A stretch of DNA of 63,417 nucleotides, filler included, from Lenisia limosa (taxonomy: Eukaryota; Protista; Breviatea): assembly GCA_001655205.1 (NCBI GenBank). It is 14 parts of 14 records of this genome, joined end to end, with 100 filler letters (N's around TTAATTAATTAA, not from the genome) between each part and the next. Parts side by side here need not be neighbours in the genome. Positions count along the whole stretch, not along the records: positions 8,674 to 12,561 come from LPNZ01005996.1; positions 12,662 to 13,672 come from LPNZ01000553.1; positions 13,773 to 18,442 come from LPNZ01003021.1; positions 18,543 to 21,871 come from LPNZ01003171.1; positions 21,972 to 23,561 come from LPNZ01001745.1; positions 23,662 to 25,374 come from LPNZ01007641.1; positions 25,475 to 27,980 come from LPNZ01000852.1; positions 28,081 to 34,974 come from LPNZ01000890.1; 6 more parts are not named here. One strand, 5' to 3'. The position numbers and the translations under genes are program-made. This document shows, in pieces, positions 9,827 through 62,481 of the stretch (position 1 is its first letter; every line of letters begins with the position of its first letter). The notes under the pieces were generated by a model. The model had not been told where the DNA came from and ran no database searches. It saw only the letters and a list, made by a program, of their open reading frames with translations.

Positions 9827-12400
9827 CTACCAGTGGTTGTGGGCGTCCATGCGGATGTAAAGCTCAACCTTGACCTTGCCGTTCTTGGAGGTGACGGTCA
9901 GGGGGTGGTTTTTGGTCTAAAAGAGATGGTCAGCTGTGAAAATCGCCAAGAAGAGTAGGCATCATTGAAAACTGTCCCCGCTCTTCTGACTCGNNNNNNN
10001 NNNNNNNNNNNNNNNNNNNNNNNNNNNNNNNNNNNNNNNNNNNNNNGGGAAGGGGGAAGAGAACAAAGAAGGAATTGTCGATGAAGAAAATTAGTATAAA
10101 GGTACAACTCAGGAAACAAATATTCTGAAACTTCAAATAAAAAGCAATAATAAGTCCATCATGAGTAAGTAACCCTCCTCTGATCGAAGAAATGAGAAAT
10201 CCGAAAATACTTGAATTCATGCTCTAAATAAAGAATGATTTCGATAAATAATCGATCAACATCCATATGGAACCGAAATGAATCCCTAATAACACGCCAT
10301 GCCCCACTTGTTGAGGAGATCGTACTCAACAGTCTTGAAAGTGAACTTGAAATCATCACCTTCCTTGAGGACGGAGGAGTACATCACTGCAAATGGTCAA
10401 AAAAGGTTTATTATCTGGAAAGGAGATTAAGAGGAGATGTTATGCTGAAACTTTCAACATGAAAGGATACAAACGCACAACAAAATATTCTAAGGTCTTG
10501 GAAAATCCTATCACACGACTGTTTTACCCCAATAAATCATGTTTGCCCCACTTCACGACCCCCTCATACGGACGTGGGGATCGAGGACGAGATCAGAGTC
10601 CTTACGCATGGGGATGTAGCCGCGGGAGGGGAAGCGGCAAATTCTATGGTGTCAATTTGAATCGCATGACTGAATGAATTATCACACCAAGGCACAAACT
10701 GTTTCCACGAATTATCACAGAACACACAAGCTGTTTCACCAGATCTAAAACCGAATCCTTGAACGAAAAGACAGAAAATGACTTGTAAACTGGCTAGTTG
10801 ATGCAAGAATCTCACTTACTCCTTGTTGTTGATCATGCCGAACTCTCCAGCGCGGAAATACCATTGTCCCTTGTCACCAGCATCACCAGATGTCTAACGA
10901 TCATTAGAAGGAGAGAAGGTACCAAGGGGGGCTCAGGAAGACAAGAAAAGTGTCAGTTAAAAAAATAAAAAACAACATTTTGAAACCTTTTCTCAGTTTC
11001 ATTAAATTCTCACAACACAAGACCTACCTGGGTGGAAACGTACTTCATAAAACACTATAACGTTAGAGAAAAAAACTAAATGGGGAATCACAAACTTGGC
11101 AAAGGTACTTCATGATGATGAACTCTTTCTCTCTTTTTCAAGCACAGGATTGGGGATGGGGAAAAAAAGGAAAAAATCAGTAAAAATACTCAAAAATCAT
11201 GGGGTTTCATACAATCAGCGATATGACCGTTTTCCTTTTGTTTTGCTCTATTCATTGTCTATTCAGGCTCTATTTCACAACTATTTCAACTCTATGTTGC
11301 TCTATTTATACTGTATGAATCTATTTATTGCAGATTTATTGCAGATTTGTTGCTCTATCTTGCAAACGGAAAACAAAAATAAGGTAATTGTAATGTCTGA
11401 CCTTTCCATGATGTCGGAATACATATCCTACATTCCTATAAAGTGCAAATTACAAAATAAATATATTAACAGAATATTAAAATAATAACAGGTTTGTTTA
11501 GGTTTAGGCTTCAACATTGACAATAACCTAAAAAAATAATATAAAAACAACTGTGCAAAGCATCGACTGAATATCGAGAGATTCAAAATAATCTTGGCTT
11601 CAATAAAACAAATGCACAAATACCCATGATAAGGAGTTTATGGGTTTTGGAGACAGTTATTAGCGGCACCAGGGTCCCAGCAAACCGTCGTCCGATACGA
11701 AGCAACATCCAAGATCTTCTTGGGGGCGGCATTCATAACCATGTACACCTGGGAATGGTCAATTTTGGTACAATAAAAACATAAAGAGGATTCATTGAGA
11801 ATAACACTTTTACACAGCAGCAGGGGTGGGGCGGAAATTGGAAAATTTATGAAACAAAAAAAAAGCCCAAATCAANNNNNNNNNNNNNNNNNNNNNNNNN
11901 NNNNNNNNNNNNNNNNNNNNNNNNNNNNNNNNNNNNNNNNNNNNNNNNNNNNNNNNNNNNCAAAAATTGGAAAATTTTGTACAAAAAATGTCCAAATCAG
12001 CTCTGTTGTCATACCTGTCCGACGTTGGCAGAGCTTTGGCAAACAGATTTGCCGAAATTGGTTTGCTGCGTAAAGCCGAAGATCTTACCTTGATCGCATT
12101 CTACAAGAGGAAGATGAGAGAGACTATATTATATATTGAGTTACATGTATGTCATCATCATTGTTACGCTCCAGAGTAAACCTGATCCCAGGATAGACCA
12201 TCTCAACCATAGAACACACTCTAATCTCAACCATGGAACACACTCTAATCTCAACCATGGAACAAATACAACCCTTATCCCACCACCACCTATAAAGGAG
12301 ATTAACCCTAACCCTTTACCCCTCCCTTTAGCCCACCGGTGCCGCCAAAGTAGAGGGCTGCATCTTGGGACTTCCAAAAAGTCCGGGCTTTTCCTCCTGC
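9827..12400 (-). CDS. Uncharacterised multi-exon protein (at least 7 exons), convergent with UNC119
   Basis: Mostly phase-compatible GT-AG exons: GGKARTFWKSQDAALYFGGT / ECDQGKIFGFTQQTNFGKSVCQSSANVGQ / VYMVMNAAPKKILDVASYRTT / TSGDAGDKGQWYFRAGEFGMINNK / ICRFPSRGYIPM / LMYSSVLKEGDDFKFTFKTVEYDLLNKWGM / TKNHPLTVTSKNGKVKVELYIRMDAHNHW*. Confidence 0.65.
12201..12264. repeat. 24-bp tandem repeat x~2.7
   Basis: Unit TCTCAACCATRGAACACACTCTAA, intronic. Confidence 0.85.
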
Positions 12401-12661
12401 AATATTCAGAACAGTGAGGTTCAGTCTCTATTGAAATTATGATCATGAAGAGCCAGCGGAATCAACAAGTGGTACACACAAAGAGAGTGGGAATAAAGAG
12501 AAACGGAAATTTTTTTCTAAGAATTCAAGTTTCAAGTTTCACACGCATGATCACCTTAATTNNNNNNNNNNNNNNNNNNNNNNNNNNNNNNNNNNNNNNN
12601 NNNNNTTAATTAATTAANNNNNNNNNNNNNNNNNNNNNNNNNNNNNNNNNNNNNNNNNNNN

Positions 12662-13672
12662 GGAGACAATTTTATTAAATCTAGAGTTGTTTATGGTAAA
12701 CATAGTACCAATGAAATTCAATTACTTTTGGTGAAGAGACATTATGTTCTTGTAGTTAAACCAGTTCCACTTAGTAAACTTCCTAAACCAAATGATTTTG
12801 AAGTTATTATTCAAGATAAAATTCCTTATCCTCTCCCAGATACTGATCTATGTTTGAAACGTTTTAATGAAGTACAAAAAGTTAAAGATCCAAATCCAGA
12901 TTGTTCTTATGTTGGGTTCTATGACTTTGAAACTTTCCAGGACGAAAACAAATATATGCATTTATATAATTGTGGACTTCTTATGCTCCCATTTGATAAA
13001 TTCTATAAAATTGAAAATGTAGATAAACTTAAAGATCAAACAAAAGTCTATTATGGAAAGGATGCTATGAATAAATTTTACTTAGTCTTAAAAGATTATG
13101 TTGATGTTATAGAAAGGAAGATTGAAAAGGAACTGGATGTTATTGCATTTGAAGTAGAAGATGTTAAAGAACTAGTTAATATTGAGAGAGAATTGAGACG
13201 GAAAAATAAAATTATTTTATACGCTCACAACGCAGGAAAATTCGATAGTCATTTCATTTGGAAACATCCTGAATTTGAGTTCAACCAAATAATTGATAAT
13301 AATGGTATCATTGAATTACAAGCCTTTGGTGGTATGGTTAGTTTCAGAGATAGTTATAGATATTTAGCATCATCATTAAGTAAATTGTGTAAGAATTTCA
13401 AATTATCAAAGGAATATTCTAAAACATCATTCCCTCATATGTTTGTTTCATCTGACACTCTAAATTATATTGGTCAAATACCAGAAGCTAAATATTGGCC
13501 AGGTTTTGAAATACCTGATTATATAGAAGACAAATTTAAGGATGGTCAATTATATAATTTAAAGAAAGAAAGTTGTGATTATCAAATTCTTGACTGTGTA
13601 AGTTTATGCTTAATTATGAGTGAATTTTGTAACACTTGTTTCGATGTGGCTGGTCAATATATAACGAGTTTT
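12662..13672 (+). mobile_element. Protein-primed family B DNA polymerase (DNA_pol_B_2) fragment, Polinton/adintovirus/linear-plasmid type
   Basis: The whole 1011-bp scaffold is one open, intronless, AT-rich frame. It has ExoI YDFET, ExoII YAHNAGKFD, FRDSYRYLASSLSKLCKNF, KTSFPH and ExoIII YQILDC. It is truncated at both ends before the polymerase motifs. Confidence 0.87.
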
Positions 13673-16360: not shown

Positions 16361-16697
16361 GTGATACATAGGGATGGTGACGTGGCGAAAACTTTCCTCA
16401 TTGTGAAAGCGTAAGGGGGGGGGGGTAAAAATGTCCAGTGACCGGGATAAGTCTTGACCGATTTGCTATGACTTCACAAGGACAATTGGTCAAGACTTAT
16501 CCCGTTCACTGTTTATGAGGAGTGACATGGGAGTGGATGATGTGGGGGGTGAGATGGAAGTTATGCTTGTCGGTCTCGGAGAGGGGGGGGGGGTATTATC
16601 ACCAAAATATGATATGTGACCAATTCAGAGGCAAATGCGAAGCAGTGAAACAGATAGTGGTGTCCTCGTCTGAGAGAAGACTGCTCGGGACTCCCAT
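16361..16697 (+). CDS. Two exons of a cyclic-nucleotide-binding domain protein
   Basis: VIHRDGDVAKTFLIVK(A) spliced to GKCEAVKQIV... resembles the cNMP-binding I.rqGd.gd.fyiv.sG.ceV pattern. Splice phases are compatible. Confidence 0.55.
16436..16511. mobile_element. ~77-bp Tc1/mariner-type MITE (TIR CAGTGACCGGGATAAGTCTTGAC)
   Basis: Inverted termini. A second copy at 61262-61339 is flanked by TA on both sides; a degenerate copy lies at ~8030-8105. Confidence 0.75.
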
Positions 16698-18655
16698 GTA
16701 AGTTTGACATAAATATCCGAAACTATGTCGGCGTGTGCTTTGTGCTATTTCTTAAATCTGCTAGCCCAGTTAATCAAGCCATGCGTGTGTACATACTTTT
16801 CTGACGTTCCATACTAACTTACCTTATTTAGCAGGGATAACTTGCCTTATTTAGCACTGATAACTTATGTAGCATTGCTGGCGATACTGAGGATATTCAT
16901 GAGCTCGTTGTTGCACGATTAGGCCCTTTTTCCTTCTTCGGCTCCCGGGCTTTAGTGCAAGAGGATACCACATCGAGAGTAGGCTTTAGTGTCTATTTGA
17001 ATATCTTGTTTGTCTTTGAGTTTTTTGGTCAGTATTCCAAATTTAGATAACAAACAAATCACTTCAATTGCAATGTTGCGTTTATTCATCTGACAGGTAT
17101 ATGCTGATTTTGTATGCGATNNNNNNNNNNCCTCAGTCATATAATACATGAGGTGGATATGTGGCATATAGAACAGAGTTTGGGCTTTTTTGTTTCATAA
17201 ATTGTCCAATTTTACGGATTCATCTGATGATCTCGTTTAATGATGTCAAGATCTCGTTCTGTTGACTCGTTCACTTTTTCATTTTTTTGTTTTCTGGAAC
17301 CAGTTGTTTTGTCTCGAGTGTTGGTTTTGATGCCGCTTATGCCACACCACTGGATTCTGTTCACCTTGCTGCATTTTTCAGCGTTTTTAATTGTATTTCA
17401 CTCTTATTTCACTCTTATTCATGATATATTATATATTACTCCCACCCCCGCCGGTTAATTTTGCTGCTCCGTAGATCATTACGATAGCGGCCTTCTTTCA
17501 CTGTGGTACAAAACGGTGATTGAAGAATACCTGCTTTGGTTATTGTGCCCAGATAGATTTTATCTAACCTCTGCAGGTACGTGGAGTGATGGGATGCGGT
17601 GCTGCAGAAGCGACTGGGCTTTGTTTGTTTTGCTTTTATCAACCCTTGTGTGTTGTCAGCCAACAGAGTTGNNNNNNNNNNNNNNNNNNNNNNNNNNNNN
17701 NNNNNNNNNNNNNGTCCCTTGTGGCTTCCACCATCAATGCTGCCAAGTCCATTGGATGCAGGTAGGAGGGCTGATTACAGCGGTTGGCAACTCCCTCTCG
17801 GAAGATATTGTCAGGAATTTCAGTCTTTTGGTGCCAAGGGCAACTCATCTGAATATGCTCCTCTCGTTGCTGGGTTGTCATTGACTGTTTTCCTTCACTC
17901 CTTCCTTATTAAAGCCGAGTCCACTTAAATTGCGAAAACAAAGTTTTTTTTTTTGAAATTTCGCCCACTTTTCCGTGGAATATTGCAAGAAATATGCACT
18001 TTTCTGAGTCAACTCCAAGAGAATCGGAAAACAATAATATTTTGTCGTTTTCTAGGTATTAACTTTTCCTGAAATATTGATCAAATCATAGTTTTCAAGT
18101 CTTAAATCACCCATTGAAAGTGCTAAATTCCATTAATATAGATGATGATTTCAGAAAACAGAAACAATACATCCGAGAACAATAAATGTATAATTTTGTA
18201 GACAAAATGTAAGTGGACTCCGGCTTTAAGCCAGCCTTCATCCTAATACTTGTAGTGCTACCCATGGTTCCCTTGAAGCCAACAAGGCTGGTGACTTCTT
18301 GGTGAGGAGGGGGTACCTGGGGATTATAAATGCTAGTTGATGTTTTCGGTTGTTTAGAGTATTGCAAGGTGGAAATCTTCAGCTGTTATTTCCATGACGT
18401 GAACGAATATTTCGCCTATGATAACATGATGGTTATGCTAGTNNNNNNNNNNNNNNNNNNNNNNNNNNNNNNNNNNNNNNNNNNNNTTAATTAATTAANN
18501 NNNNNNNNNNNNNNNNNNNNNNNNNNNNNNNNNNNNNNNNNNGTGATATACTATATCAAATCATATGTACACAATATACTATATCTGGACCCCCTATAAT
18601 ACCTCCAGATATAACTGGACATCTCTATATCAACATGTATCTGCACCCCCTCTAC

Positions 18656-22678: not shown

Positions 22679-23470
22679 ACCTGGTCTGCAACACACTCCC
22701 GTTCATTCCACGCCAACACGAGGCCGTAAACTGCGCGCGGCCGCAAGGTGGAAATGTCACGTGCTTGTACAGCTGCAATAATGTGGGGGGGGTGTATAGT
22801 TGGTTGTATAAATGTGTCTGTGGGGGGTACAATGTATACATATAATATGATACTACTATATAATACACTGTATATTTATATATATGTGTGGGGTGGATTA
22901 CTATTGTATAACTACAGAATATTGTTCCCGATGGGATGCGGTACTGCAAAAGCGACTGGGCTGGGCTTTTTTTACCCTTGCTTGCGTGTTTCCCAAATGC
23001 TTAGCCAACAGGGTTGATTTTGGGGTTTTTTGTTCAAATATATTCAATTCTTACCGGGCTTGTTTTTGTTTTTGTGATTATTCTGTTCGTCATAGCACCT
23101 TTACGCCAATATTTTTCATCGAATTTCCTTCGTTTTACTCTCTCCCCTCACACACACAGTGCACGCCTTACACAGCAAAAGTGGCCTGTAATGTGGCTTC
23201 GGGCTGGGACTCTCTGCCCTCATGTACCCCCTGTGAAGGTGGGGGTTTGTTTTTTATGCGGGATTTTTTTGATTTTATGGGGGAGGGGGGCGCTGTTGTA
23301 GTGTATTTGATTGTTTTATTTTCCATAATTGATTGTTTTTTTTTGTTTTTTTTTCTTCTTATTATTTTTTTATTCCAAAAAAGAAAGAATGATTCCTCCT
23401 GACAGTTTCAGATGACCTCATGATTTGCGGAGATGCGGGTTATCAAGGCATGTCCAGCGTTGATATCTAT
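22679..23470 (+). CDS. Exons of an extracellular protein with a Sushi/CCP-like module, possibly followed by a kelch-like segment
   Basis: LVCNTLPFIPRQHEAVNCARPQGGNVTCLYSCNN and CTPYTAKVACNVASGWDSLPSCT show the C...YSC...C...GW...P.C pattern. The later exon DDLMICGDAGYQGMSSVDIYDT is kelch-like. Confidence 0.45.
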
Positions 23471-23661
23471 GACACCACTCTTCTTTATTCTGGTTTGGCG
23501 GTCTTTGTTTGTTGTTTTTGTTTTCAACCCTTGTAGAGAGTTGTGGAGTTTTTTTGTTATANNNNNNNNNNNNNNNNNNNNNNNNNNNNNNNNNNNNNNN
23601 NNNNNTTAATTAATTAANNNNNNNNNNNNNNNNNNNNNNNNNNNNNNNNNNNNNNNNNNNN

Positions 23662-23728: not shown

Positions 23729-23739
23729 CCCCACTTTTT

Positions 23740-25330
23740 GCACGATTTCGTTGCAGTCGTCCACAGCGAACTCGGCCGAGTCCTTCACTACCCGGGCCTG
23801 TCGCTCAGCCGCCGCCTTCTCTTCATTCCGTCTGGGGGGGGGGGGGNNNNNNNNNNNNNNNNNNNNNNNNNNNNNNNNNNNNNNNNNNNNNNNNNNNNNN
23901 NNNNNNNNNNNNNNNNNNNNNNNNNNNNNNNNNNNNNNNNNNNNNNNNNNNNNNNNNNNNNNNNNNNNNNNNNNNNNNNNNNNNNNNNNNNNNNNNNNNN
24001 NNNNNNNNNNNNNNNNNNNNNNNNNNNNNNNNNNNNNNNNNNNNNNNNNNNNNNNNNNNNNNNNNNNNNNNNNNNNNNNNNNNNNNNNNNNNNNNNNNNN
24101 NNNNNNNNNNNNNNNNNNNNNNNNNNNNNNNNNNNNNNNNNNNNNNNNNNNNNNCAGCCAATAGAGTTGATTTTAGGCGTTATTTGTTTCATAAATTTTC
24201 CGATTATACTCCCCTCCCCCTGACTTCCTCTGCAACTCCTCCTCCTTGCGCCTCTGAAGCTGCTGCTCGAGGCGCTGGCGCTCAAGTTCGGCGTGGCGAT
24301 TTGGCGCGGCCTGGGGGGGGGGGGGNNNNNNNNNNNNNNNNNNNNNNNNNNNNNNNNNNNNNNNNNNNNNNNNNNNNNNNNNNNNNNNNNNNNNNNNNNN
24401 NNNNNNNNNNNNNNNNNNNNNNNNNNNNNNNNNNNNGGCTAGCATTTGGGAAGCACACAAGGGTTAAAAACAAAATAAAAACAAAGCCCAGGTCAGTCGC
24501 TTCTGCAGCCCCCTTACAGCTTGAGAAGAAGACGTATTTGAGGCACCAAATTGGGCATTTGACAAGTCCTACATAGTAAAGGAAGAAGGAATTTTAAAAC
24601 AAGGTTGTTTCATTAGGAATAATCTTAGGAAGAAGGGAAAATAAATCAAGACTGTACCAGTATGAGTAGTCTTAGGAAGAAGAAAAACAGAAATGAATAC
24701 TTTAACACAATATTCAAAGGAGCTTAACATAATTTATATACTATATACAGTATATGCATATATATGATATATTATATATGTATCACTACGAACCTGGGTG
24801 GAGAGCTTCATAGCAAGAGTCTGCATGGCCACTTCGTCCCGACGGTCCAGTTCGATTCCGATGAGGCGCGCAAGTTCGCGTGAACTGCGCGTGACTTTCA
24901 CTACTTCCGGTACCACCGTGCCGACTAAGGCATTAAAATTGTGGGTATATATAACAAATTATGTCATATTATATTCCACTAGTTGTATAGTGACATGATA
25001 CCCTGTAGTATATTTATTATAACCCAATATTTCGATGCAATATTCTTGCTCCCAAAATTTGAACTAATCTGTAGTAATGAGAAATAAAACAAAGTTACCT
25101 CAAGATGCCCTCGATTCTTGTATAATACTATTACTCTAAATTCTAATCATTTGTCTGATAATATACAACACAATTCCCCCACTTGACTCCTTGTTGATGG
25201 TGGTGGAAGTGAGGGCCTGGGCTTTGACGATCGCTATGATCTTGCCGAGGGATGTTGTCAGCAGAGTCACGTGACTTTGTGTCTGGCTGTTTGGGTCAGA
25301 AGGATGGACACCCTCGGTATAAATCTTCGA
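23740..25330 (-). CDS. Multi-exon alpha-helical/coiled-coil protein fragment, unidentified
   Basis: Exons such as LTTSLGKIIAIVKAQALTSTTINKES, ALVGTVVPEVVKVTRSSRELARLIGIELDRRDEVAMQTLAMKLSTQ and AAPNRHAELERQRLEQQLQRRKEEELQR, with CCCCCAG acceptors on the minus strand. Confidence 0.55.
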
Positions 25331-27500: not shown

Positions 27501-27546
27501 CGTCTACAACAGTGAGGACCTTCCCACCAAAAACAGAAAGAAACAC

Positions 27547-27574
27547 TTTAGGAATCCTCCGGAGGATTCCTAAA
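27547..27574. other. Perfect 28-bp palindrome TTTAGGAATCCTCC|GGAGGATTCCTAAA
   Basis: Arms are exact reverse complements with no spacer; about 50 bp upstream of the helicase ATG. Confidence 0.92.
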
Positions 27575-27800
27575 ACTCCCCCGTCGCCAACCTGATCGTA
27601 GCAGCAATGGGCAGAAAATAGTTGACGGGCAGCAAGGCAAACTACCTCGGGAAGAGTCTTAATAAGTAAAATGCAACCCAAAAGCAAAGCAGAACTTTGA
27701 ACAACCAACAAAATTGTGCAGCTCACCTTTTCAAGGCACAGGAGTCGAAAAGAGGCCTATTTTTGGAATTTTCGTCTATATAAATGAAATAGGGTGACCA

Positions 27801-27830
27801 GTTCAGTTCAGTTCAGTTCAGTTCAGTTCA
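27801..27830. repeat. (GTTCA)6 microsatellite
   Basis: Directly visible. Confidence 0.92.
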
Positions 27831-27896
27831 TTGCGGCCGGAATTTTGTTTTTTAGATGCGTCCCCGAAGATTTCAGGATCCTCCACGATACCTTCA

Positions 27897-27980
27897 GGAA
27901 GCTTCCTAAAATCTTTGGGAAGCTTCCGGAAATCTTTGGGGAGCTTCCGGAAATCTTTGGGGAGCTTCCGGAAATCTTTG
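27897..27980. repeat. 21-bp tandem repeat x4 (GGRAGCTTCCGGAAATCTTTG) running to the scaffold end
   Basis: Units start at 27897, 27918, 27939 and 27960. The array is cut by the linker. Confidence 0.9.
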
Positions 27981-39431: not shown

Positions 39432-39523
39432 TTCTCAAACCCTCGTATGTTGTGTCAGCCAGCAGAGTTGATTTTGAGCTTTTTTGTTGTTTCATAAATT
39501 GCTCCATTTTACTCTCCCCCTAG
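39432..39523 (+). repeat. Intron-end repeat family A (~130 bp, ends ...TTTTGTTTCATAAATTTTCCAATTTTACTCCCCCCAG); type copy of about 15
   Basis: Other copies: 11818-11875(-), 11962-12006(-), 17171-17215, 17585-17671, 22928-23045, 23495-23560, 24155-24220, 24438-24518(-), 39765-39868, 43895-43998, 49188-49250(-), 53741-53797(-), 60592-60649, 61405-61447. Confidence 0.85.
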
Positions 39524-39975
39524 TGCACGGAAGGCACCGACGACTGCAGCCAGATTTGTACCAACACGGTCGGCTGGTTCATCTGCAGCTGCGACCCAGG
39601 CTACACTCCGCAGGCGACCGGTAGCAGTGCCTGTGTTGACGTCGATGAGTGTTCACAGGGAGGGCATTTAGACTCTGAATGTGGGTGGCCGGGCAAGGGT
39701 TATGTGGGTGGCTTAAAACTTATGTTAGCTTTATTATATGTTTTATGAATGTGTTAACTTATTTTGTTTGTCTTGTTGTTATCAACCCTTGTGTGTTGTC
39801 AGCTAAGAGAGTTGATTTTGGGCTTTTTTTGTTTCATAAATTTACCAAGTTTACTTCCCCCCTCCCAGCCGGCTTAATGATCAACCCTGGTCTTTGTGCG
39901 CACTACTGCAACAACACCCTAGGAAGCTACGAGTGTATTTGTCGCGACGGTTACTACGTCAATGCTCAGGCCTGT
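39524..39975 (+). CDS. Two calcium-binding EGF-like domains (exons of an extracellular protein)
   Basis: CTEGTDDCSQICTNTVGWFICSCDPGYTPQATGSSACVDVDEC and LCAHYCNNTLGSYECICRDGYYVNAQAC fit the cbEGF consensus CxNTxGSYxCxCxxGY. Confidence 0.85.
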
Positions 39976-42675: not shown

Positions 42676-44367
42676 GAGACTGTGTTACTCGGTCAACTTC
42701 TTATGAAATTCGCCGATATCTCTAACTCCGCAAAAGTGAGTCATTCTGGTACACTTGTCTATCTTTGTTCTACCCTCTGGAATATTCAATGCTGTGATGC
42801 TTTCGGGACATTTAAATAATATTTTGCTTGGTTTATTGCTGGGGAGGCACACAGAAAGCTGTGTACACAGAGTTGTAAGGCAAATGATTGGGTGAATTAA
42901 TAGGAGACAATTATCTAATATCTCTTAGAAGCGTGATGGTGTTGACGGCTTTTGCCAGATACAACCTTATTTTTTATTTCTCACAGCTATATTTATCTTA
43001 GTGGTACTTCTCTATGCCTCGCCAACTAGATACAACCTTGTTTTGTTTCTCATCTCTATGTAGTAATTAAATAATTTACATTATAAATGATTCTATAGCC
43101 CTTCCCTGTTGCCCGTATTTGGTCCTCAAGGTTGCTCAAGGAATTTTTCAGACAGGTAAGAAATGGTGGGGATTGCAAACAAACACTTACAAACCGTACT
43201 GGACAATAGAGTAGTCTTGGTTACATTGTAATAAGATATCTGATTGTTTTAACTCCCCATTGACAATCAAGGGTGATTTGGAGCGACGCCTTGGTCTTGG
43301 AGTTAGTCCACTTGGCGATAGGGAAAAGGTATTCATGCTAAAAAGTACCGGTAATATGGCTTCAATTTTCATTTCCTATTTCACATCAACTCTGTGTCTC
43401 GCCATCTGTTTTTTTTATTATTCATATTATACATTTCTGTTGCGTATTTCCATTCTTCACCCTCCCCCTTTCCCCAGGTAAACCATCCAATTTCACAGAT
43501 TGGATTTGCGCATTTCGTTGTCGAGCCCCTCCTCGAGGCCATGTGTGAATCTGGTTTCTTTGCTGGTCTCGAGCCGTGGCTGGTGCAGGTATGCGATTCC
43601 TCTAGCTAATAACTAATTAGCCAGTTTTTTTAATGACACCCCTCTTCCCTTCCCCTATGATGTAGATCCAAAATACAACCACTTTTTCACTATTTTAGGT
43701 CCGTTCCAACCGGCTGGCATGGGAGGCGATTAAGGATTATGAGTCCAATAAAACTGATGTGTATTCTATAATGGTAAGTTCAGTGAGGGAATATTTGCTG
43801 TGTTCATTTACGCCCCACCACCCAGAAAATGCATATTTATACGTTTACATCAGTTAGACTAATAGAATTTTCATATTATTGATGTTCATTTCACCTTGGT
43901 TTGTTTTGTTGTTATCAATCCTTGTGTATTGTCAGCTAATAGAGTTGATTTGGGCCTTTTTTGTTTATAAATTTCCAATTTTTCACCCCGCCTCCCAGCC
44001 TCCACCCCCGTCCTACCTCATTTCAAATTCGGGAGTCCCGGACACTTTCGCTGAACTTATCAACGCCATCGAGTCAGCACACCACACCCCAAGTAACTCC
44101 TCTCCCCTCCTGCCCACCCCCAAAACACCCATTACTCCGAACCTTCGNNNNNNNNNNNNNNNNNNNNNNNNNNNNNNNNNNNNNNNNNNNNNNNNNNNNN
44201 NNNNNCGGAATTCCTCAACTACTTTTTATTATTATTATTATTGAAAGTTATTTGGAGATGGACACATTTTTGAATCAATTGGGACAGTTGATTGGACTCT
44301 TTTTTAAAAAATGAAGACGACTGGTGGTCCAATTTGTTTACAGGATGTTGTCACTCCTATCAACTGA
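42676..44367 (+). CDS. Class I 3',5'-cyclic nucleotide phosphodiesterase, C-terminal part of the catalytic domain plus tail
   Basis: Spliced LLMKFADISNSAK/PFPVARIWSSRLLKEFFRQ/GDLERRLGLGVSPLGDREK/VNHPISQIGFAHFVVEPLL shows the PDEase_I ADISN, EFF.QGD.E and SQ+GF motifs. The 3' end is uncertain and may extend to ~44747. Confidence 0.9.
42843..42983 (+). repeat. Dispersed intronic repeat family C (~140 bp; GTAAGGCAAATGATTGGGTGAATTAA...GACGGCTTTGGCCAGATACAACC)
   Basis: Near-full copies at 47254-47395 and 59895-60015. Fragments at ~20724, ~52655(-) and ~62290. Confidence 0.82.
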
Positions 44368-47689: not shown

Positions 47690-50600
47690 TTAACTTACAC
47701 CCGGAACAATTACCTGAAGTGTGAGAGAAATATCAATTCACAAAACAAGCCATCATAAAGACGCAAACGCACTTGTTCGGCCTGATTGACGACCCTTGGA
47801 GCTCAGTATCAAGACGCTGCTTCAAGGCCCTCAGCTCATGCTCCAGATTCTCAGAGGCAACTACAACATCAGATGATGAGTCCCCCCGAAGAAGTGATAT
47901 GTTTCCTGACAAAGCCCCATCTCGCAGCTCACACGATGCTGTGAAAGGTTGAGTGGCTGAAGGGGTGTGGCGGACGGGTCGGTGCGGGTCTCTGTCCCGA
48001 GTGCTACTGGGGTATCAGTAGGGCTTCACTTCGGTTCGAAAAAAGACTGAATTTCTCGATAAATCCTCGAAAACTATCGAAAAAGAACGTCAAAATATCG
48101 ATGTTTTTCGAGAATTTATTGAGAAATTCAGTCTTTTACATGCAATGATCATTTCATACCCACAAGGCCCTCGTATGTAATGATCATTTCATACCCACAA
48201 GGCCCTCGTATGTAATGATCATCTCATAACCACAAGGCCAACTTTCGTGAAGGATGGGCACTCAGGGCGGATTTGGCCAATGGGCCGTTGTCTGTGTCAG
48301 GATTCTAAGCTGTCAGACAATGTACTACATAGAGTTGGGTACATTGAGGCTTGCTACAACAAAATCGTCAGTTCATTTCTAATCGAGCCCTAATCCCTAC
48401 CGCTGTATTTGTTCGTCTCAAAGACGCAGCTGTCTTGCGAAGCGTTTCGGAAACACCAGCGGCGGCGGTTGGCTTCTGGATGGTAAAGACATGCAAGGAA
48501 ACTTTGAAGATGAATATACAATTCATCCGAAAACTGAAAACAGTTAATATAATAAAAAAAAACAGAGTTCAAGCGCACAATTCAAAGAAAATAACCCAAG
48601 TCAACCTATATTCATTCCACAAAAATATACTATGATATTTGTAACAAATCATAATAAAAATAGCGTAACACTATCCTCACTTTACGTTGGGGGGTGAGTG
48701 GAGCAATGGCGGCGGCAGATGAACGAGTAGCCTATTGCGGTTATTCCCAACACAAGAAGAGAAGAAAGTGGGCAAGAATGCTACGTATCGGCAAAGTACC
48801 AGAGCCAGGTACGTACCTGGGGCTGCTTTGTTGAGGCACGAGGGGAGAAGACCCGGGTTCTCTGACGTTCCTCCTGGGGGGAAGGCTGGGAAGTCACGTG
48901 ACAGCATGGTGAATTATGAGGAGTATACGTATGTTAGAAAATAACCCTGACGACTCACGCTTCTTCTCGATAGCGTTAACAGTGAGTTGGCATGCTCGAT
49001 GCGGGACCTTGCATTTCTCTCGTCACTCATGTCCCTTTCCATTCTTTGGAGCNNNNNNNNNNNNNNNNNNNNNNNNNNNNNNNNNNNNNNNNNNNNNNNN
49101 NNNNNNNNNNNNNNNNNNNNNNNNNNNNNNNNNNNNNNNNNNNNNNNNNNNNNNNNNNNNNNNNNNNNNNNNNNNNNNNNNNNNNNACACTAGGGTTCAA
49201 AACAATAAAATAAACTAAGCCCAGGCCTCTATAGCACCGCGTCCAATCAGCCCACCAGCGTAAGGCCACAGTCTCCACCCACCATTAAGCCTGGTGGAGT
49301 TCAGTTCAGCCCGGGACAGGTTTTCCTCCTGTTGTCTGGCCATGTCTATAGACTGGTGTAGTCTTCTGGGGAGGGGGGTAAGAAGAAAGTCTTGATATAA
49401 TACGGTGAAGTGACCAATATGATGGAGCCAATAATCTGAAAGGCAAAAGTGGCAATAATACAAAACGTACTGGTCCAAGTCCTGATTAGCGGCCTGCATG
49501 GCACGGCATGTGGCTTCAGTGTCGTGCAGCTTTGTCTCTAAGTCACGCTTCTCTGCATCAAAATTCCGGCGGATTTCGGTTAGAATCCGGAGTTCGTCTT
49601 CAAGCCGCCGCACCTGAGGGTTGGTAACTCAGTCTGGCGACCAAGATTATGTCCCAGTTTGGCGTTGGCCTTCATTTTTGATTTTTCATAATTACGTAAA
49701 TTGATATCTTATATGATATATATTTCTTAGTAATTCAGAAAACCACCAACTCAAAATAAATATCTTTAACTACCTCTGCAAAGCACCGGTGGGGTGATGA
49801 GTCTTCATTACCCACCTTGGTGTTGTTGTTGATTCTGTCAGTTTGCGATGCCAATGCGGTCTGAGCCTCTTCACGGCTCTGTCGTTCTTGCTGCAGATTG
49901 TTCTGACAGGTGTGATCATCATGTTGAAAGAATCTAAAAGGCTGGATCTCTATGATCCTAGTTTCAAAAGAGACTTTACTGCAATAAAAGGCGCCACGCA
50001 CCTGCAATCCGGCCACTTGTGACGATGTAGTCTTGCGAACCTCGCGAAGTTCCAACTCCAGTCGTCTGATTCATAAATCGCAATATTCAAGGAGCTTAGC
50101 ATGCCCCCGTTTGATGAAAATAGTAGTACCTTACTTATCCAGCACATCAGCTCGCATATAGGCAAGAACAGTGCTCACCTATTTGCCACTTCAAGTTCAC
50201 TTTTCTGTGCGGCCTCAACATGACGCTCGGCTGACACCTTGTTCAGTGACTCCTCGTACATCTTCGGTGTTAGATTGCTGTTATATGGCTGCTTTGGTTC
50301 TGTGCTAGACTCCTTTACCTTGGTTTTGGCACGCAAATCCCCAATAGTAGTTTCAACCTCCAGGTCCTGAAGAATGAAAGATACTATGAACATTTGCCAA
50401 TTAAACTCAAATAAAGCACCAACTCTTTGTTGCGCAAATTCTTCAAGACGACCAACTTCCGACTTTGTAGACTCCAAATCCGTCTGGGTTTCCTAATACA
50501 GTAAGCTTAGTAATGTGATTCCTAGAAATATTATGCAACAAGCAGTAACAGATAAAACGTCAAGACTCTTCCTCAGTTGAGACAACAGAGAAGTATCAAT

Positions 50601-53600: not shown

Positions 53601-55556
53601 CGGGCCAATGGCGTACTCTGTTTTGGTTTTCAGCCTCAACCGCTCGAGACGACAGACGTGTCACTTCATCACTCGTTAGTCGACTCTCCATTTCAGCGTT
53701 GCGACCTGCCTCCTCCGACTGTCGTGCGGTCTCACGAGACCTGGGGGGAGTAAAGTTGGAAAATTTATGAAACAAAAAGAGCCCAAATCAACTCTGTNNN
53801 NNNNNNNNNNNNNNNNNNNNNNNNNNNNNNNNNNNNNNNNNNNNNNNNNNNNNNNNNNNNNNNNNNNNNNNNNNNNNNNNNNNNNNNNNNNNNNNNNNNN
53901 NNNNNNNTTGCTGCTGTGAGCGAGAAACCTAAACCGTCACCTCTGACAGTGTCACGTTGGCCGGATTTGTGTCAACCCAAATTGAATATCCTATTATTGC
54001 TACGACACCTGAGATACGACCCGCCTGATAGAGGACATGAAAAATGTGAGACAATATTCTGGTGAACAAGATCGTACTCAAAAATGGAAATCCCATCACA
54101 CCTCTTCTCTGGCTGAAAGTAGAGACTCCTCAGCTCGCTGCCTCTCTAAGGTAACAGCTAAACTGTTAACAGGCAAATTCACATTTAGCCTTATCATGAC
54201 AAGAAAAAACCAAAGAGATTACACACTTCATCCTACATGAAACTGTATTTTGCACCCTGGTAAGCTGAGTCTTCAAGTCTGAAACCTCAGCCTGGTACTA
54301 AAGGGTAAATAAGATAGAGTGGCCATGAAAAAAGGCACAAAGCATACATCATTGATTTGCCTGAGATAGTCCGAAATTTCACTGTCATGCTGCCGCACCA
54401 TTGCCATAGTTAAGTGAGAGGCCTGCGGGAAGGTCAGGCAAACAAGCGAAAAAGAAGAAAACGAAACTTAAGCTGTCAAGACTACCTCGGGGTTTGTTGC
54501 CTGGGCCTGTCGTGCATTGGCCTGGAGCTGAGCCACCTCGTCCCTCAAGGCTTGTGAGTCGCGGCGTGACCCCTGAATTGTCATATCCTGTTACTGGTCT
54601 GAAAAGGACCAAATAGATCTACAAATTATTCGAGGAATTCAAGTCTTTGCTGCCATGTAGAATCTCAAACAAACTTATGACTGTTGACATAACTGAGAAA
54701 AATGGAGGAATACAAAACGGAAAGCTTGAATAGTAGCAGGAAGTATTTTATATATACAAATAACTCTGTGTCAATCTTTTTTTTACAAGAAGGCACTTAC
54801 CTCCAGCTCAGCCCTTAGTCTCGAGGAGTTTGATGCTTCGTTGTTTAGCCTTTCCTCAAGAGTTGCAATCCGCTCCTGTCGGTCCTAGAGCACCCGTCCA
54901 TTAAAGGAAATAGGGGAGTGATAAAGATAGCCATGTTGGCTTTAATGTAGAATCCCCAAGGCAACAGTACACCCGACCACCGTGTCGCTACTGCTAAACG
55001 TTTGTGGACTTCTCTGGTACTGCTCTAGCCTCTTCTTCAAATCCCCAACTTCTTTGGTCAGTTTCCATTTCTNNNNNNNNNNNNNNNNNNNNNNNNNNNN
55101 NNNNNNNNNNNGACGTCCTGCACAGGGGAATCGTTGTAATTTGGTATTTTGACATTTGGCCCAAAGCCGTTACTCGTCAGACCTGTCTAAGGGCTTCAGA
55201 CCGTGCCTGTGATTGCAGTCTGGCTTCTAGTAAAAGATCACCAAGTTTGGCTTCATAAGCCTGGAGGGAAGGAGCTAAGTTGAGCAACTCAAAAAGATAC
55301 TTCAAGCAAATCATACCGTAATATCGCCAGAAAGTTCTAATTTAATCTGATCCGCTTCTAATAATGCTTCATTCCTTGCATTAGTACGTCCTTCCAATTC
55401 CACAAGTGCATCCTTTGAAGCAGAAAGTTCCTTCTCTAGCTCATCTTTTCTCTTTGTACAAATAGCCAATTCTCTGCGAAGCCTAATATGGTTAAGGATC
55501 CTACATAATTTGGTGAAAGGCACAACCCTCACCGAGCCGTTTCTTCGTCATCCCCT
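47690..55556 (-). CDS. Large coiled-coil protein (about 25 or more exons), possibly centrosomal/cytoskeletal
   Basis: Consecutive heptad-rich exons, e.g. RRLEDELRILTEIRRNFDAEKRDLETKLHDTE, QARQAEQELRLEAEGARNAALRQVQE, IRLRRELAICTKRKDELEKELSASKDALVELE. No diagnostic domain seen; ends are approximate. Confidence 0.7.
48144..48239. repeat. 35-bp tandem repeat x~2.8 directly following a truncated MITE
   Basis: Unit AATGATCATTTCATACCCACAAGGCCCTCGTATGT. Confidence 0.85.
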
Positions 55557-56246: not shown

Positions 56247-59200
56247 ATGGATGCTCCAGGCATAGACCCAGCAGCTCTTTTGGGAGGTGGAGGGGGGGGG
56301 GCGCTACCATTATTGGCGTTGCTTGGACTTCGCTGACGATTTAGATTCATCATACAGCGATAGCTCAGTTCTTCTTTACCATGATGACCATGCTTCTTTT
56401 GCCACTGTATGCACTGGGTTTAATCTCCCTTTGAAATAACTTTCAATAATTTTACCTTGATTCGGTATTATTTAGAATCTCGCTGTTGACCTTGAATTCA
56501 TCGAAATATAGCACAGTACTCCTCCAAACCCCGGTGTGCAACAACCGACAAAGGCCAGTCTATCACGCAAGAGACGTGTCACACGCAACCTGGACAAATT
56601 CTTTGTCCATGTTTATGACTACTACGTTAACGGAGGGTTTTGGCCGCTTCTTCTCTCAAAATTCTTTAATTTATTGTATGCTGGCAGTGCAGTTCTTTGA
56701 TGTAACCATCTTTAGGACCTTAGCGTTTATCATTTCTTTTACAACATTTCTCCTCGTATGTGTTGATTACCATGTCTTATTCACGGCGTACTCGCTGGGC
56801 GAGGCTGTGGAGCTCGGTAACTTGAAACAGTGGGCTGGCCGATTAATTGGGCCTTTTCCAAATTCCATCAATTTCGATATTCTGTCAGCTTCACCTCTCA
56901 CCTCTCTAGTATGCACTGGGTATTTGTGACTTGCCAAGTGCTATTCTGGCTTTACTATCTCTGGGAGCTGGTTCACTTCATTTCTGATGTCAAAGTAGGT
57001 GTCACCGATATTGATTATAGTAGGGGGAGGCTTTGACATTCTCAGGTGTTTTGGGACATGAAACAGTTCTTCAACAAGGAGCTCCAGATTAATGAGGTAT
57101 TACTCTTGTACGTTGTCTTGAGCATTCAATCACGATATATCAGTCATGATCTTGCTTTATGATGTTACAATAAGGCTTCCCTACGGTCCGAAAAAGACCA
57201 GTAAAACATTGATATTTATCGAGACATTCAGTCTTGTTTGGGACCATAGCGAAGCCCTAGTAACAATTCTTGAACGATCACATTACAAATCCTCACAAAT
57301 ACTACCTGTTGTCTTTTACAAATTACTTTTATTGTACCAGGCTAACTTACCCACAATGGATTGGTGTGATGTTGTGGCTGCCTTAACTTGGTACCAGGTT
57401 GGTTGTCATAACACATTTTTATTTGTTGGATTGGTTTTTAATGCTTGGCTTCTTGTTCAATATTTCAGAGTTACAATCGGATAGTTATTGTGAAAGACAA
57501 CCTCTCCGCCCTTGATGTGACAAATCGCATCATGCGCAAGGATAACTACTTTGTTGCACTCATCAATAAGGTATGTTGCAGGGTTACGTTTATTTGCTTT
57601 TATTGCACATGTCGCTTTAAAGTTCATTTCAGGACATTTTGGATTTCCACATACCGTCACCGTTGGGCCTGCTTTCAAACTTCAAAGTAAGCATTTGTTC
57701 TTCCAAGACATTGCTTGGTTGTTTTATCGCCCTCGGTATGATGCTAACCTAGTAGCCTTTGACGCGATTGTTGGAGTGGATGATCCAGTTCTGCGTGTTC
57801 GGCCACGCGTTTCAGTCCTCACACACTATCAATAAGTCGTACCTTGATAAGTTCCAGAGAGAGAAGACAGCGAAACGTGAGCAGGCCTGAACTCGCTAAT
57901 AGTAGCATGCTGATACTCTGTAATAGTAACGTCTTTAGAACTGAAGCGTCGGTTTTTCATTCTTGGCTTCTTCGGGATCATTTTGGCACCGTTTGTCTTC
58001 GTCTTCCTCTTCGTCTACTTTTTCTTCCGATACGGTAAAGAAATTCATGAGAACGCGTGGGTGGCTTGTAAGGTCATTGTAGTTCTATACATTGCGGTGA
58101 CTTGTTGTTTATGAATGTAGGTCGGAATTCTTTGGACTGCGTAATTGGGCCCAGGTGGGGGTGTATGCTTTCAGCCGATAACACCCATCCAAAGTTGAAT
58201 GATGAGAAAGACTCATTGCTAAATCCCTTCAGACTGCAACCTGGCGCATGAGAGAGTTCAATGAATTACCACACTTCTTCAAGAAACGTCTTTCTTTAGC
58301 CTGCAAGCCTGCGGGCAAGTTCATTGAGGTGATCTTGTGAGACAGCTTTTGTACATTCTCTCTCAAATCAGTACTTACAGTGCAGCAATTCCCTTCGGTT
58401 GCCCTTTCGATAGTAGCACGTTTTATTGCCTTTGTTGTCGGATCCTTTGCCGTCGTCCTCGTGGCCCTCTCAGTTTACGACGACAGCGTCCTCATCAATG
58501 TACACTTGATGCTTGGCCATACTCTTGTATTGTCATTTCTCACTCTCCTCTCAGGTGGAAGTGACGCATGAACGTTCTGTGCTCTGGTACCTTGGAATCC
58601 TTGGTACTGTACTTGCTATATGGTAGGACATTTCTTCTGTATTTCTGAGCAAGGACTTCGGCCCAACTAACGCGGCAGTCGAGCCCTTGTTCCTTCAGAT
58701 TTGACCATTTTCGATCCGAAAACGCACCTTCTTGAGGTAGACTGGGCGAATACTAGAGAAAATTGGGGTTACTATGTATCTATTGTATGTTACCATATAA
58801 GGTACAGTTTCACATTTCAGATGATCAGTTACACACACTATTACCCCAAGCACTGGAGAAATCAAGAAACCACCACTGAGGTACTTGGACTAAGTCAGCT
58901 TGTTGAGCTTTTTGCAGTTATCTTCAAATCATCCGATATTTCATAAGCTGTATCATTTGCTCTAGATTCTGGGGGAAGTTGAGGCTATGTTCAAATTCCG
59001 TATTTTGCTGTTTCTGGAAGAAATGCTCTCACCACTCTCCGCCCCATTGGTTCTTTGGTTCAGCCTTGCTCCAAGATCCTTGGAAATTGTCAATGTAGGA
59101 TAGTAATATTTTCCTTGGCCTGTTCCAAAGTCTCACTTAAACTACAGTTTATTGGAGACAATACCGTCTACATTGAAGGCGTTGGTGGGAGGGGAAGGAA

Positions 59201-59702: not shown

Positions 59703-59802
59703 NNNNNNNNNNNNNNNNNNNNNNNNNNNNNNNNNNNNNNNNNNNNTTAATTAATTAANNNNNNNNNNNNNNNNNNNNNNNNNNNNNNNNNNNNNNNNNN
59801 NN

Positions 59803-62481
59803 TTGGGCTGGCTCCCGTAACAACTACTTCGTCAAGGGCGATTCCAAGTTTATGAACGGCTGCGAAAACGTTTGAGGGGCGGGGTAGTTCTATATGTCCA
59901 CAGAATTGTAAGGCAAATGATTGGGTGAATTAATTCATATTATACTCTAATCCAATATCTCTTATAAGCGTGACGGTGTGGACGGCTTCAGCCAGATACA
60001 ACCTTGTCTTTTATTTCTCATTACTATATATAATAGGCTTCGTTTTGAGCCAAAAGAGTTTTTTTGTTTTAGCTTTTAGTAATATCGTTTTCTTACCCCC
60101 CTCCCCAGCTCTGCACCAGCTATGTACCCAAGATTCTCGAGGTTCACCAGGCTGTTTCTGAAAACTGTGAGGGGAGGATGTTTGTGGAAGCTCTATGAAA
60201 TGGGGGTCGTGTAAATTTGGGCCAATCTGTTTGTTTTTAATCAATCAAAAAGAGTTCATTTTGACACGATTTACGATCTAGTTGGAATCAAGCCCAAGTA
60301 CACCCTTGTCTATGGCGAGCTTTTCGGAAACCTCTATCTTCCAATCGGTATGCTCTTCATGGCTACTATCATTGTTCTTCTCTAAGTGACTACTCCTTTT
60401 CACTTTTCTTTCTATTCTACCTTAGTTTTCTTTCTCATTGTATATTCTGTGACTAATCTTTTTTACTCCTTTTTATCACTTTTCTTCTCTGCTCCCTCTC
60501 GGATACGGTTCTTAAGTATTTCCATTAGCCTTCGTCATTGCCGCTTTAGCCTCATCCCATTCCATCAATCACCTTGTGTTTCTAGCCAGCAGTGGCTTTT
60601 TTTGTTTCACAAATTTTCCAATTTCGCTCCCCCTTCCGTCCTTTCCCAGTTCATCATCCCCCTCCAGAGCACCCCAAAAAGACCCCTGTCCAGAAGAGGG
60701 TTCAGTACCATCATGAGCTCCAATTCCTTGCTTTTGACATCTGCTATATCCCTGAGGGTTGGTTGGGGATTGGGAAAAAGGTTGTATCTGGCCGCAGCTG
60801 TCGACACCATCACGCTTAAAAGAGATATTAGACTACGCTATTAAAACCAGTTCCCCTTTTTCATTACCGTCACTTTTCAGATGCTGACACCACCGTTGTT
60901 GACGAAGATGATGTTTGCCCCCAGCGAGTTGTTCTCAGCTACAATGAATTCACTGCCATTTGCAAGAACGTTGACATTATGACTGTATGAAGGGTGGATT
61001 CATAGGTGTTATAACCACAAGTTGATTTCCTGTTATTTCATAAATAGTAACTTTCATCGCTCCTCTTCTCATTTACCCCACCTAGCCCCCCGAGATCCAA
61101 GTCGGAACTTATGAGGAATGCATGAACTTCAACCCCTTGTAAGTGGCGAACTTATTTGTTGGGCTCCGTGCAATTTAATTGAAAAATTAAATTCAAAATT
61201 TAAAGTCGGACATTTCACGAGAACCCTATTCCAGACACTTTTTAATTAAATTTAATACATACAGTGACTGGGATAAGCCTTGACTGATTTTCCTTGAGAA
61301 ATCACATAAACAATCAGTCAAGACTTATCCCGGTCACTGTATTGTGCCGTATCCAACGTGTATACACCTTGTTGATACCCCGCTTTCCTTTATTTACTAT
61401 TATTTTGTGTTTTTTGTTTCATAAATTTTCCAATTTCACACCCCCAGCATCCCCTCTCGCATTGCCACCACCCTCTACGGTCTGCCCGAGGTTGACAAGA
61501 ACATTGTTGAAGGAGTTGTGATGCGACCTGTTGACCAGAGGGGCTTCGCTAACCGCACCAAAATCAAGGTATGCTGAGATTTCATTGTTTTTCTGAAAAC
61601 GAATGTGAATCTTTAATTTTCGTTAACTTCTCGTCCCATATATAAACTGTCTTTAATCCCTCGTAGAATGCCATGTTCGAGGAGCTTGTCATCCAGTACA
61701 GCAAGCCGAAATCTGAGGGGCCTAAAGTTGCCAAGTTCAACCCTATGGAGGTGGGGGGGTGTGATTTTCCATGATACAACACTGTCGATTTTGTCCATTT
61801 TTCACATTTCTTTTTGATGAGACTTTTTTTCACAGTTCTTCTATTTTTCACAGTTTAGTTCTTCGCATCAAACTGCAACGAGAACCGCATTTGCTCCCTG
61901 GTCTCTAAGGTAGGAATAGGTTGTTTTATTATACTTTATTCTTTCATTCGCTCACCACCCTACCAAAATATCTCTTTCCTCACCACCCAGGTTGGTCCGG
62001 TTCCTGCCCGCGGTACCCCTGAGTTTGACACCTTCGTCAAAATGGTGATGGGTGTTTTTATGGCAATTTTTGTTTTTGACGCATTACACTTTTTTTGTCA
62101 CGTACTTTTATTAATTCAAACAGATCAGTTGACCTTTTTAATCATTTTATTGTAAAGTATATGATATATTATTTTATTTTTTTATTAATTCAAACAGATC
62201 GTGAAGGACATTGAAGAAGATCTCATTGAAGTCGAGGGCGACAAATACACTGCTGTATGGAGGTATCTTTTATCTCTTTTTAGCGGGATCGTGTGGACGG
62301 CTTTGACCAGATACCCTTGTTTTAAATTACTCACTCATTGCTATATTTTTCAAAAACTGAACATAATAGTATCACATGTCCCCCACCCCAGATTCCTGAG
62401 AAGGGCCGTGCCGGACTGTTAAAGAAGGCCGAAGGGGCTTGTCGAGGCAAGATCATCAAGATCACCGCCAAGGCTGGCTAA
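59803..62481 (+). CDS. RNA ligase of the T4 Rnl2 family (5' partial, about 12 exons)
   Basis: Motif III VYGELFG, PVQKRVQY...FLAFDI (IIIa), motif IV EGVVMRP, motif V KIK/NAMFEE, and the Rnl2 C-terminal-like NENRICSLVSK/VG...VKDIEED. Motif I lies upstream of the scaffold start. Confidence 0.82.

Follow-up and report, generated by a model that had tools for sequence, protein, structure and literature searches.

Lenisia limosa, an amoeboid flagellate of the breviates, carries a short interspersed repeat, here termed repeat A, which is hosted by non-paralogous genes (EGF, PDE-like, coiled-coil, RNA-ligase, galactokinase-like and HutI-like). Repeat A is supported as an acceptor-donating family, its 3′ end being strongly enriched at splice acceptors and its orientation nearly always sense. 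The analysis was centered on a 63,417-nucleotide stretch of the genome (the window), consisting of 14 scaffolds with N spacers between them (GC content 39%). Eight of the 13 copies in fully sequenced introns are sense copies that end no more than 30 nt from the terminal AG, as compared to 1.3 expected (P = 2.5e-6; P = 4e-4 when conditioned on the sense strand). MITE B, a miniature inverted-repeat transposable element (MITE) with thousands of copies that served as control, ends this close to an AG in one of 15 cases (Fisher p = 0.004 versus repeat A). Within genes, 23 copies of repeat A are sense and one is antisense (n = 24; p = 3e-6). An earlier note on this DNA, made from the sequence alone, had described a splice-site-donating mobile family and had proposed comparing its ends at splice sites with random intronic positions; the enrichment is borne out for the curated introns used here, which are not genome-wide. 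The same note had the repeat filling introns, which is not confirmed, as repeat A covers 12–64% of the host intron in all 13 fully sequenced cases.

Anatomy and placement of repeat A

A profile search (nhmmer) returned 15 matches at E < 0.01 on nine of the 14 scaffolds, with a best E value of 2 in the reversed-window control, consistent with the earlier description of a family on several scaffolds. Fourteen of these matches sat in the seed alignment, so independent support comes from extra copies in other contigs and in the sole DNA read run used (X1), which, like the RNA run (X2), was compared as assembled contigs. A pattern scan of GTDB genomes gave one match, to eukaryote contigs within the bacterial bin G001 (at least five: C39, C43, C56, C67 and C69, referred to as L009–L013). 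Unique flank on these contigs equals X1 without any difference, and they therefore belong to the L. limosa genome; two pattern scans of JGI metagenomes for repeat A gave 0 matches. Gap-free copies in the extra contigs include L009 5348–5489, L009 100–226 and L001 497–619, and copies are 71–97% alike to the profile consensus. When one copy was compared with X1, 8,194 contigs matched at a summed depth of 142,000–915,000 versus 22 on the flank, a depth that is not a copy number. Repeat A is present in thousands of copies, 15 per ~60 kb scaling to roughly 12,000 in 49 Mb (a table in the PMC9860276 supplement gives the assembly as 49.0 Mb with 39.1% GC).

The unit is ~140 nt long, with a GC-rich head, a T-rich middle and a TTTAC end, followed by a C-tract of 8–24 nt and often by AG. 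Conserved similarity stops at TTTAC, 8–24 nt ahead of the AG, and the C-rich stretch between is variable. Copies share a common 3′ end and have variable 5′ ends. The 5′ start is donor-like, GTA(C/T/G)G, and its edge is sharp in X1, where 88 contigs share a single breakpoint, at which the sequence ends in TACGCTGG and beyond which the flank is C-rich; GTA begins four of the five individually resolved 5′ ends (window 17577, L009 100 and two X1 junctions). TTAC, TAAC or TGAC occurs within the last 35 nt of 48 of 84 curated introns, the adenosine commonly lying 10–16 nt ahead of AG, so the TTTAC of repeat A is likely its branch site. No Rfam match to a tRNA-, 7SL- or 5S-like head was found, nor an ARAGORN match in L009–L013, and the tail is C-rich, not A-rich. 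PolyA RNA contigs carry mostly the 5′ half (L009 5349–5441), at depths up to 111 versus 5–17 on the 3′ half; these contigs may stem from retained introns, from DNA or from a separate transcript.

No convincing terminal inverted repeat was found, in agreement with the earlier note, and no significant fold was detected (z-scores 0.45, 0.19, −0.30 and 0.03). A DNA transposon of the non-autonomous kind, degenerate at its ends and favoring C-tracts, would suit a genome rich in DDE transposases and MITEs, and the two ends (GTA..TGG and CCA..TAC) agree at 7 of 11 positions, by eye only. This origin is nevertheless highly improbable, given the many 5′-variable copies with intact 3′ ends, the lack of a hairpin (z 0.0 to 0.45) or a fixed target-site duplication, and the absence of acceptor bias in the true MITE B. 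Copies of repeat A in the window are as follows.

39436..39523 (+): 3′ part, acceptor of EGF-gene intron 39352–39523, 45% of the intron
39761..39868 (+): 3′ part, acceptor of EGF-gene intron 39681–39868, 50% of the intron
43890..43998 (+): 3′ part, acceptor of PDE-like-gene intron 43774–43998, 42% of the intron
53741..53797 (−): 3′ part, coiled-coil-gene acceptor; 5′ side within a 110-N gap
60564..60649 (+): decayed 3′ part, RNA-ligase gene, 24 nt from AG 60649
61402..61447 (+): short 3′ end, acceptor of RNA-ligase-gene intron 61139–61447, 12% of the intron
22929..23054 (+): near full-length, mid-intron; a family D copy follows head-to-tail and reaches acceptor 23159
12009–11961 and 11875–11833 (−): two tandem 3′ parts in one intron, 212 and 84 nt from AG
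17172..17215 (+): short 3′ part without C-tract, mid-intron
23500..23543 (+): weak internal fragment (E = 0.13; blastn 1.6e-6)
6675..6711 (+): weak decayed 3′ end, thrombospondin-gene intron (E = 0.002 and 0.59 in two profile searches)
3569–3593: second weak 3′ end, thrombospondin gene (E = 0.078 and 0.24 in two profile searches)
17577..17713 (+): copy starting at a probable donor GT, HutI-like amidohydrolase gene; 95 nt sequenced, the remainder hidden by a 42-N gap
24437..24512 (−): copy from element position 25, 5 nt inside donor 24517; 111-N gap
49187..49262 (−): 5′ half, starting ~20 nt into the intron from the likelier donor 49282; remainder hidden by a 134-N gap
24154..24222 (+): sole antisense copy; C-tract 24210–24222

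The PDE label derives from the earlier note and from motifs seen by eye; the one exon scanned gave no Pfam match. A homologue search with the RNA-ligase exon found nothing. At the 53741..53797 copy, summed X1 depth is 98,576–258,217 versus ~37 on unique DNA. The near full-length copy at 22929–23054, the 5′ half at 49262–49187 (−) and the head-to-tail stacking described below were absent from the earlier note.

All six AG ends that the note had reported exist (39523, 39868, 43998, 60649 and 61447 on the plus strand; 53742–53741 on the minus strand), with similarity stopping at TTTAC; AG 60649 has an in-frame rival, AG 60667, of similar score (8.0 vs 8.8). Splicing at the repeat A-supplied site is indicated by reading frame in five window cases and by RNA in one case, where an X2 contig spans exactly the exon L009 5490–5532 after the element's AG (bin depths). 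Host genes are very intron-rich, and the curated GT–AG introns (n = 84) have a median length of 152 nt; the window UNC119 exon agrees in full (100% identity) with an L. limosa protein derived from a transcript, and this protein also confirms two predicted introns. Left out of the 13-copy count were copies with one end in N (53797, 24512, 49260 and 17580), 23500 and three contig copies, for which the donor is not on the same scaffold or contig, L009 3756, 5313 and 5847 and the L010 copy (no gene context), and the weak copies at 3569 and 6675. Assembly gaps often abut G- or C-runs (window 3364, 10046, 16028, 23847, 24326 and 51532); copies beside long runs are therefore under-assembled, and the acceptor counts are probably low.

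At 24155–24220 the earlier note had seen an antisense copy whose end forms the donor region. The copy is real and its C-tract is the G-run of the minus-strand gene's donor, but the GT itself (24224–24223) lies just outside the element. The further claim that the family works in both orientations has this one antisense copy, of 24, behind it. G-rich donors are general in the host: 31 of 84 curated introns have a G-run behind the donor, and five of six homologous thrombospondin introns are of this kind. A general origin of G-run donors as remnants of antisense repeat A was not supported, as the sequence behind 31 G-runs gives no mirror image of TTTTA. With G-rich donors general and no mirror of the element end, the antisense copy looks like an insertion at an existing G-run. 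C-runs ahead of AG occur in 23 of 84 introns, in 3 of 33 short and 20 of 51 long ones (p = 0.003). Pairing of intron ends was ruled out, since G-run donors and C-run acceptors do not co-occur (9/31 vs 14/53; p = 0.80).

Placement at acceptors could alternatively reflect random insertion followed by selection, in which only copies coinciding with acceptors were kept while sense mid-intron copies (with a cryptic AG) and antisense copies (with a cryptic donor behind the G-run) were purged. Consistent with such purging, the antisense strand reads G-run then GTAA (window 53741–53760 on the plus strand), and sense mid-intron copies make up 4 of the 13 in fully sequenced introns. We regard this explanation as very unlikely, because C-run joints and the C-rich 5′ flank in X1 point to targeting, and most insertions would have to be discarded.

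Existing introns and candidate new introns

Repeat A occurs in head-to-tail stacks, namely 22929 (repeat A then the sister family D), 12009 then 11875, L009 27–83 then 100–226, and L009 5313–5346 then 5348–5478, and several mid-intron copies directly precede another element reaching toward AG. Among the joints listed from X1 (15 of 63), 11 lead from the 3′ end, at TTTAC or the C-run, to 5′ starts that vary. Two joints connect the end of repeat A straight to a GTA start, one of them without the adenosine. A join of branch region to donor start that lacks the adenosine is a signature of lariat read-through.

Family D, which shares with repeat A an end consisting of TTTTAC and a C-tract, was found at the following positions.

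7075..7141 (+): acceptor of a thrombospondin-repeat intron
3271–3352, 3594–3659, 6226–6300 and 23056–23140 (+): further copies
10142–10060 (−): further copy

The thrombospondin gene has six introns at one repeat-unit position, between exons that are 53% alike. Of these homologous introns, four lack family D, one has it displaced and one carries it at the acceptor. This last copy agrees at 93% over 41 nt with a D copy in an unrelated gene; family D thus entered pre-existing introns. In the eight acceptor cases, repeat A likewise appears as an insert that takes up the 3′ end of a longer intron: the 5′ remainders are unrelated, with no mutual blastn similarity, and none has the repeat A 5′ end at the donor. 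Repeat A starts 19–267 nt from the donor in fully sequenced introns, 19 nt being the smallest 5′ gap among sense copies.

The best candidate for an intron made by repeat A is the copy at 17577, whose first two bases are GT, directly after CAG. The donor score there is 7.7 versus a curated median of 5.8, within the top quarter. The flanking exons are as follows.

17557..17576 (+): short exon or exon end ahead of the copy, gapless versus the HutI profile
17714..17761 (+): exon after the copy, with a HutI/amidohydrolase C-terminal motif, in frame with exon 18256–18301

The end of 17557..17576 resembles an acceptor (CTAAC..CAG; score 6.8 vs median 6.15). When scored with a profile built from 24 bacterial HutI proteins, three parses using donor 17577 reached 20.1–22.6 bits, all gapless, as compared to 18.5 for a parse with an internal AG and 15.4 for the downstream exons alone. 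Judged from this 2–4-bit advantage, GT 17577 probably serves a HutI-like gene as a genuine donor, without a protein indel. The 42-N gap is compatible with the ~50 nt of repeat A that are missing there, and 17577 may therefore be a whole-element intron, with nothing but repeat A in it; duplication of the AG would fit but falls in the gap. A PALP-like or WD40-like reading of the 17.5-kb gene, with repeat A behind an internal AG, is the less likely parse by its lower rank in the HutI profile (18.5 vs 20.1–22.6 bits). Homologue searches gave nothing with 17459–17578 and one spurious repeat protein with 16606–16698, and the PDB gave chance matches only.

For donor 24517 (−), similarity to repeat A sets in after 5 nt of intron, from element position 25, and the intron ends in C13-AG at 24311 with 111 N between, making this a second, weaker whole-intron candidate. 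The donor-proximal starts claimed at these two loci hold in this form: the first begins at a probable donor, and the second begins within the element rather than at its 5′ end. The copy at 49262 (−) has a full 5′ end, ~20 nt into the intron when counted from donor 49282, which is more likely than donor 49255 (score 8.4 vs 6.4); RNA joints of this coiled-coil gene are swamped by repeat joints, and the donor choice follows the scores. Whole-intron candidates thus number at most two (17577 and 24517) in the ~90 kb examined, as compared to the four or more looked for in an introner family, and the creation of an entire intron by repeat A is likely an occasional event.

In the survey of introners in bioRxiv 10.1101/2022.06.06.494994, similarity has to come, at each intron end, to within 5 nt on the exonic side or 10 nt on the intronic side. 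None of the 13 copies in fully sequenced introns shows similarity at both ends; 17577 and 24517 have it at the 5′ end, their 3′ ends being in N gaps. The earlier proposal of an intron-generating family is accordingly supported at one locus and more weakly at a second, but not by the eight acceptor cases. One could still suppose, as for classic introners, that each A-ended intron was created by one insertion of repeat A and had its 5′ part replaced or expanded later. The full element does read like an intron from GT to AG, and the start at the probable donor 17577 without a protein indel and the 24517 copy, with its C13-AG intron end, are as this history would have them. We consider it unlikely as a general account, since the 5′ parts of the acceptor-ending introns are unrelated, as described above, and a near-complete copy in L009 sits 267 nt downstream of its donor.

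As described in the parts of bioRxiv 10.1101/2022.06.06.494994 and PMC12130899 drawn on here, introners resemble repeat A in being short non-coding families with splice signals in introns of unrelated genes, including in aquatic protists, and the sense bias and lack of terminal inverted repeats and target-site duplications recall the fungal introner class read there as RNA-propagated. However, introners span the intron, whereas repeat A mostly occupies its 3′ 12–64% and is stacked head-to-tail, cases that the survey filter, as there described, was built to drop. At one or two loci repeat A acts as an introner would; at most others it behaves like a retroposon that targets (C)n, and placing it among the introner families should await a genome-wide count of whole-intron members.

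Possible routes of spread

On balance, we lean toward repeat A being a C-tailed non-autonomous retroelement whose main effect is to refit acceptors already present, with an intron created on occasion. Such an element would spread via an RNA copy whose C-rich end primes on the G-strand of C-tracts; C-tracts lie mainly between branch point and AG, so new copies would land just upstream of AG. Each new copy would then provide the branch point and the pyrimidine tract, with older copies displaced toward the donor, while a full-length copy landing at an exonic acceptor-like CAG would bring its own GT and yield a new intron, as proposed for 17577. The rare antisense copy would arise by the same priming on a donor's G-run. 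Alu elements, whose antisense poly-T supplies a pyrimidine tract and AG, create new exons by such means. In both cases a retroposon homopolymer tail would serve as pyrimidine tract, although repeat A acts in sense, with poly-C and at existing acceptors.

Penelope-like elements of the Chlamys type, as described in sections of PMC8557442, insert at (C)n, are frequently 5′ truncated, have head-to-tail non-autonomous copies and leave target-site duplications that are hard to see. Variable 5′ truncation and head-to-tail copies, as in the non-autonomous element MRC1, are also features of repeat A, and its joints and flanks in X1 lie at C-runs, whether these are older than the inserts or were brought by them. 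Unlike MRC1 as portrayed there, repeat A is only ~140 nt long, has a donor-like 5′ end and has no autonomous partner among the 57 open reading frames of the window and contigs; those sections make no link between the Chlamys elements and splice acceptors.

Several observations weigh against a C-tailed retroelement at acceptors. No reverse transcriptase or GIY-YIG reading frame was found among the 57 open reading frames, which include only DDE transposases and a type-B polymerase. The base ahead of the 5′ edge in the 88 X1 contigs is in plurality C, not donor G. Target-site duplications, which the earlier note had suggested looking for, are not clear in 11 of 12 copies, with a 9-nt repeat at one copy. 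The intron set was hand-curated from an unsupervised gene finder with all A-bearing introns included by choice, and the C-run excess in long introns fits either targeting of C-runs or their delivery by inserts. Depth in X1 reaches 915k on the 5′ half of repeat A versus 223–331k on the 3′ half, so a genome-wide excess of 3′ ends is not shown, contig depth again not being copy number. Entry of repeat A into pre-existing introns is inferred by likeness to family D, the control for secondary insertion being D and not A itself. The reverse transcriptase on G001 contig C55 is of the bacterial group II intron type by sequence and neighbors.

Alternatively, though doubtfully, spliced intron RNA itself might be the mobile unit, homing to 3′ splice sites through pairing of its branch–C-tract–AG end with acceptor-like targets. 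Spliceosome-made intron circles, with proposed reverse splicing into R-loop DNA, are described in parts of bioRxiv 10.1101/2024.03.26.586863, where trimmed circles keep at least 15–20 nt after the branch. This route would give sense copies and 3′-end-to-donor junctions like the two X1 joints, but in contrast to the circles there described, the X1 junctions keep 1 nt or none after the branch and are DNA. If intron-RNA homing were true, introns would grow by stacking at the acceptor and new introns would form where an exon mimics an acceptor; C-run acceptors would be scars, and a route of intron gain and splice-signal change would be one that introner screens drop.

Spread without a reverse transcriptase is also conceivable, with breaks at G/C runs mended by copying the 3′ end of another intron through microhomology at the run, such that a founder snowballs. 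Repair of this kind would account for the sense bias, C-tract junctions, variable 5′ ends and lack of target-site duplications, as well as for several families (A and D) behaving alike, and local duplications beside G-runs do exist (8801–8864; L001 275–340). It should, however, copy past the founder's edge, yet in X1 a single 5′ breakpoint is common to 88 contigs whose flanks differ, and we judge such repair quite unlikely.

Returning to the retroelement reading, repeat A bridges secondary insertion and intron creation, which surveys keep apart: most copies represent the former and probably some the latter. Its behavior suggests that the acceptor signal of a genome can be rewritten by mobile elements, and its high copy number together with public DNA and RNA data makes RNA-mediated intron spread, a long-open question, testable. 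Breviates are unmentioned in the main text of both introner surveys (bioRxiv 10.1101/2022.06.06.494994 and PMC12130899) and in 12 of the 14 PMC12130899 supplements; the text of the PMC9860276 supplement names L. limosa at least once, in an assembly list. Titles and abstract openings of the listed literature on L. limosa with introns or transposable elements hold nothing on this topic. As far as the literature was searched, repeat A would be the first introner-like family in a breviate.

Other repeats and elements nearby

A second intron-like repeat, family C (12 matches in all), has in common with repeat A the first bases (GTATGCTGG at 47247, right after AAG) and the ACAGAGTTG motif, and its end is T-rich; the copy at 47247–47430 is possibly a whole intron. 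Family C and the palindromic MITEs are located as follows.

47247–47396, 42838–42987, 59892–60024, 62260–62336 and 20723–20772: family C
52686–52633 and 60843–60773 (−): family C
L009 5094–5206: family C
3820–3917, 6380–6477, 6897–6979, 7229–7326, 8341–8435, 8954–9049 and 20152–20232: MITE B, a ~99-bp palindrome in many introns
20619–20714, 21020–21116, 21212–21309, 48019–48137, 51721–51796 and 57172–57258: MITE B, further copies
2651, 8031, 16437 and 61263: MITE E, a ~79-bp palindrome

At window 8801–8864, the last 21 nt of the UNC119 exon are repeated 22 nt downstream, and the 22 nt between read as a donor G-run then TAAAC, so that the arrangement resembles a very small C-tailed insert in antisense, flanked by a long duplication of its target. 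At L009 1419–3753, a copy of repeat A appears to be split by a 2.3-kb element that has inverted ends and carries a transposase-like gene. Contig L010, which also has repeat A, carries at 4066–5500 a DnaJ gene (Pfam) with introns of ~21–25 nt, several seemingly not AG-ended by eye. The low-GC scaffold 12662–13672 encodes a fragment of a type-B (organellar/viral) DNA polymerase (E = 1.5e-19), and the 55%-GC scaffold 25475–27980 has a 570-codon open frame without a Pfam match; both scaffolds are likely Polinton- or virus-like elements. At 35075–36100, a DDE_3 transposase gene is broken by short introns.

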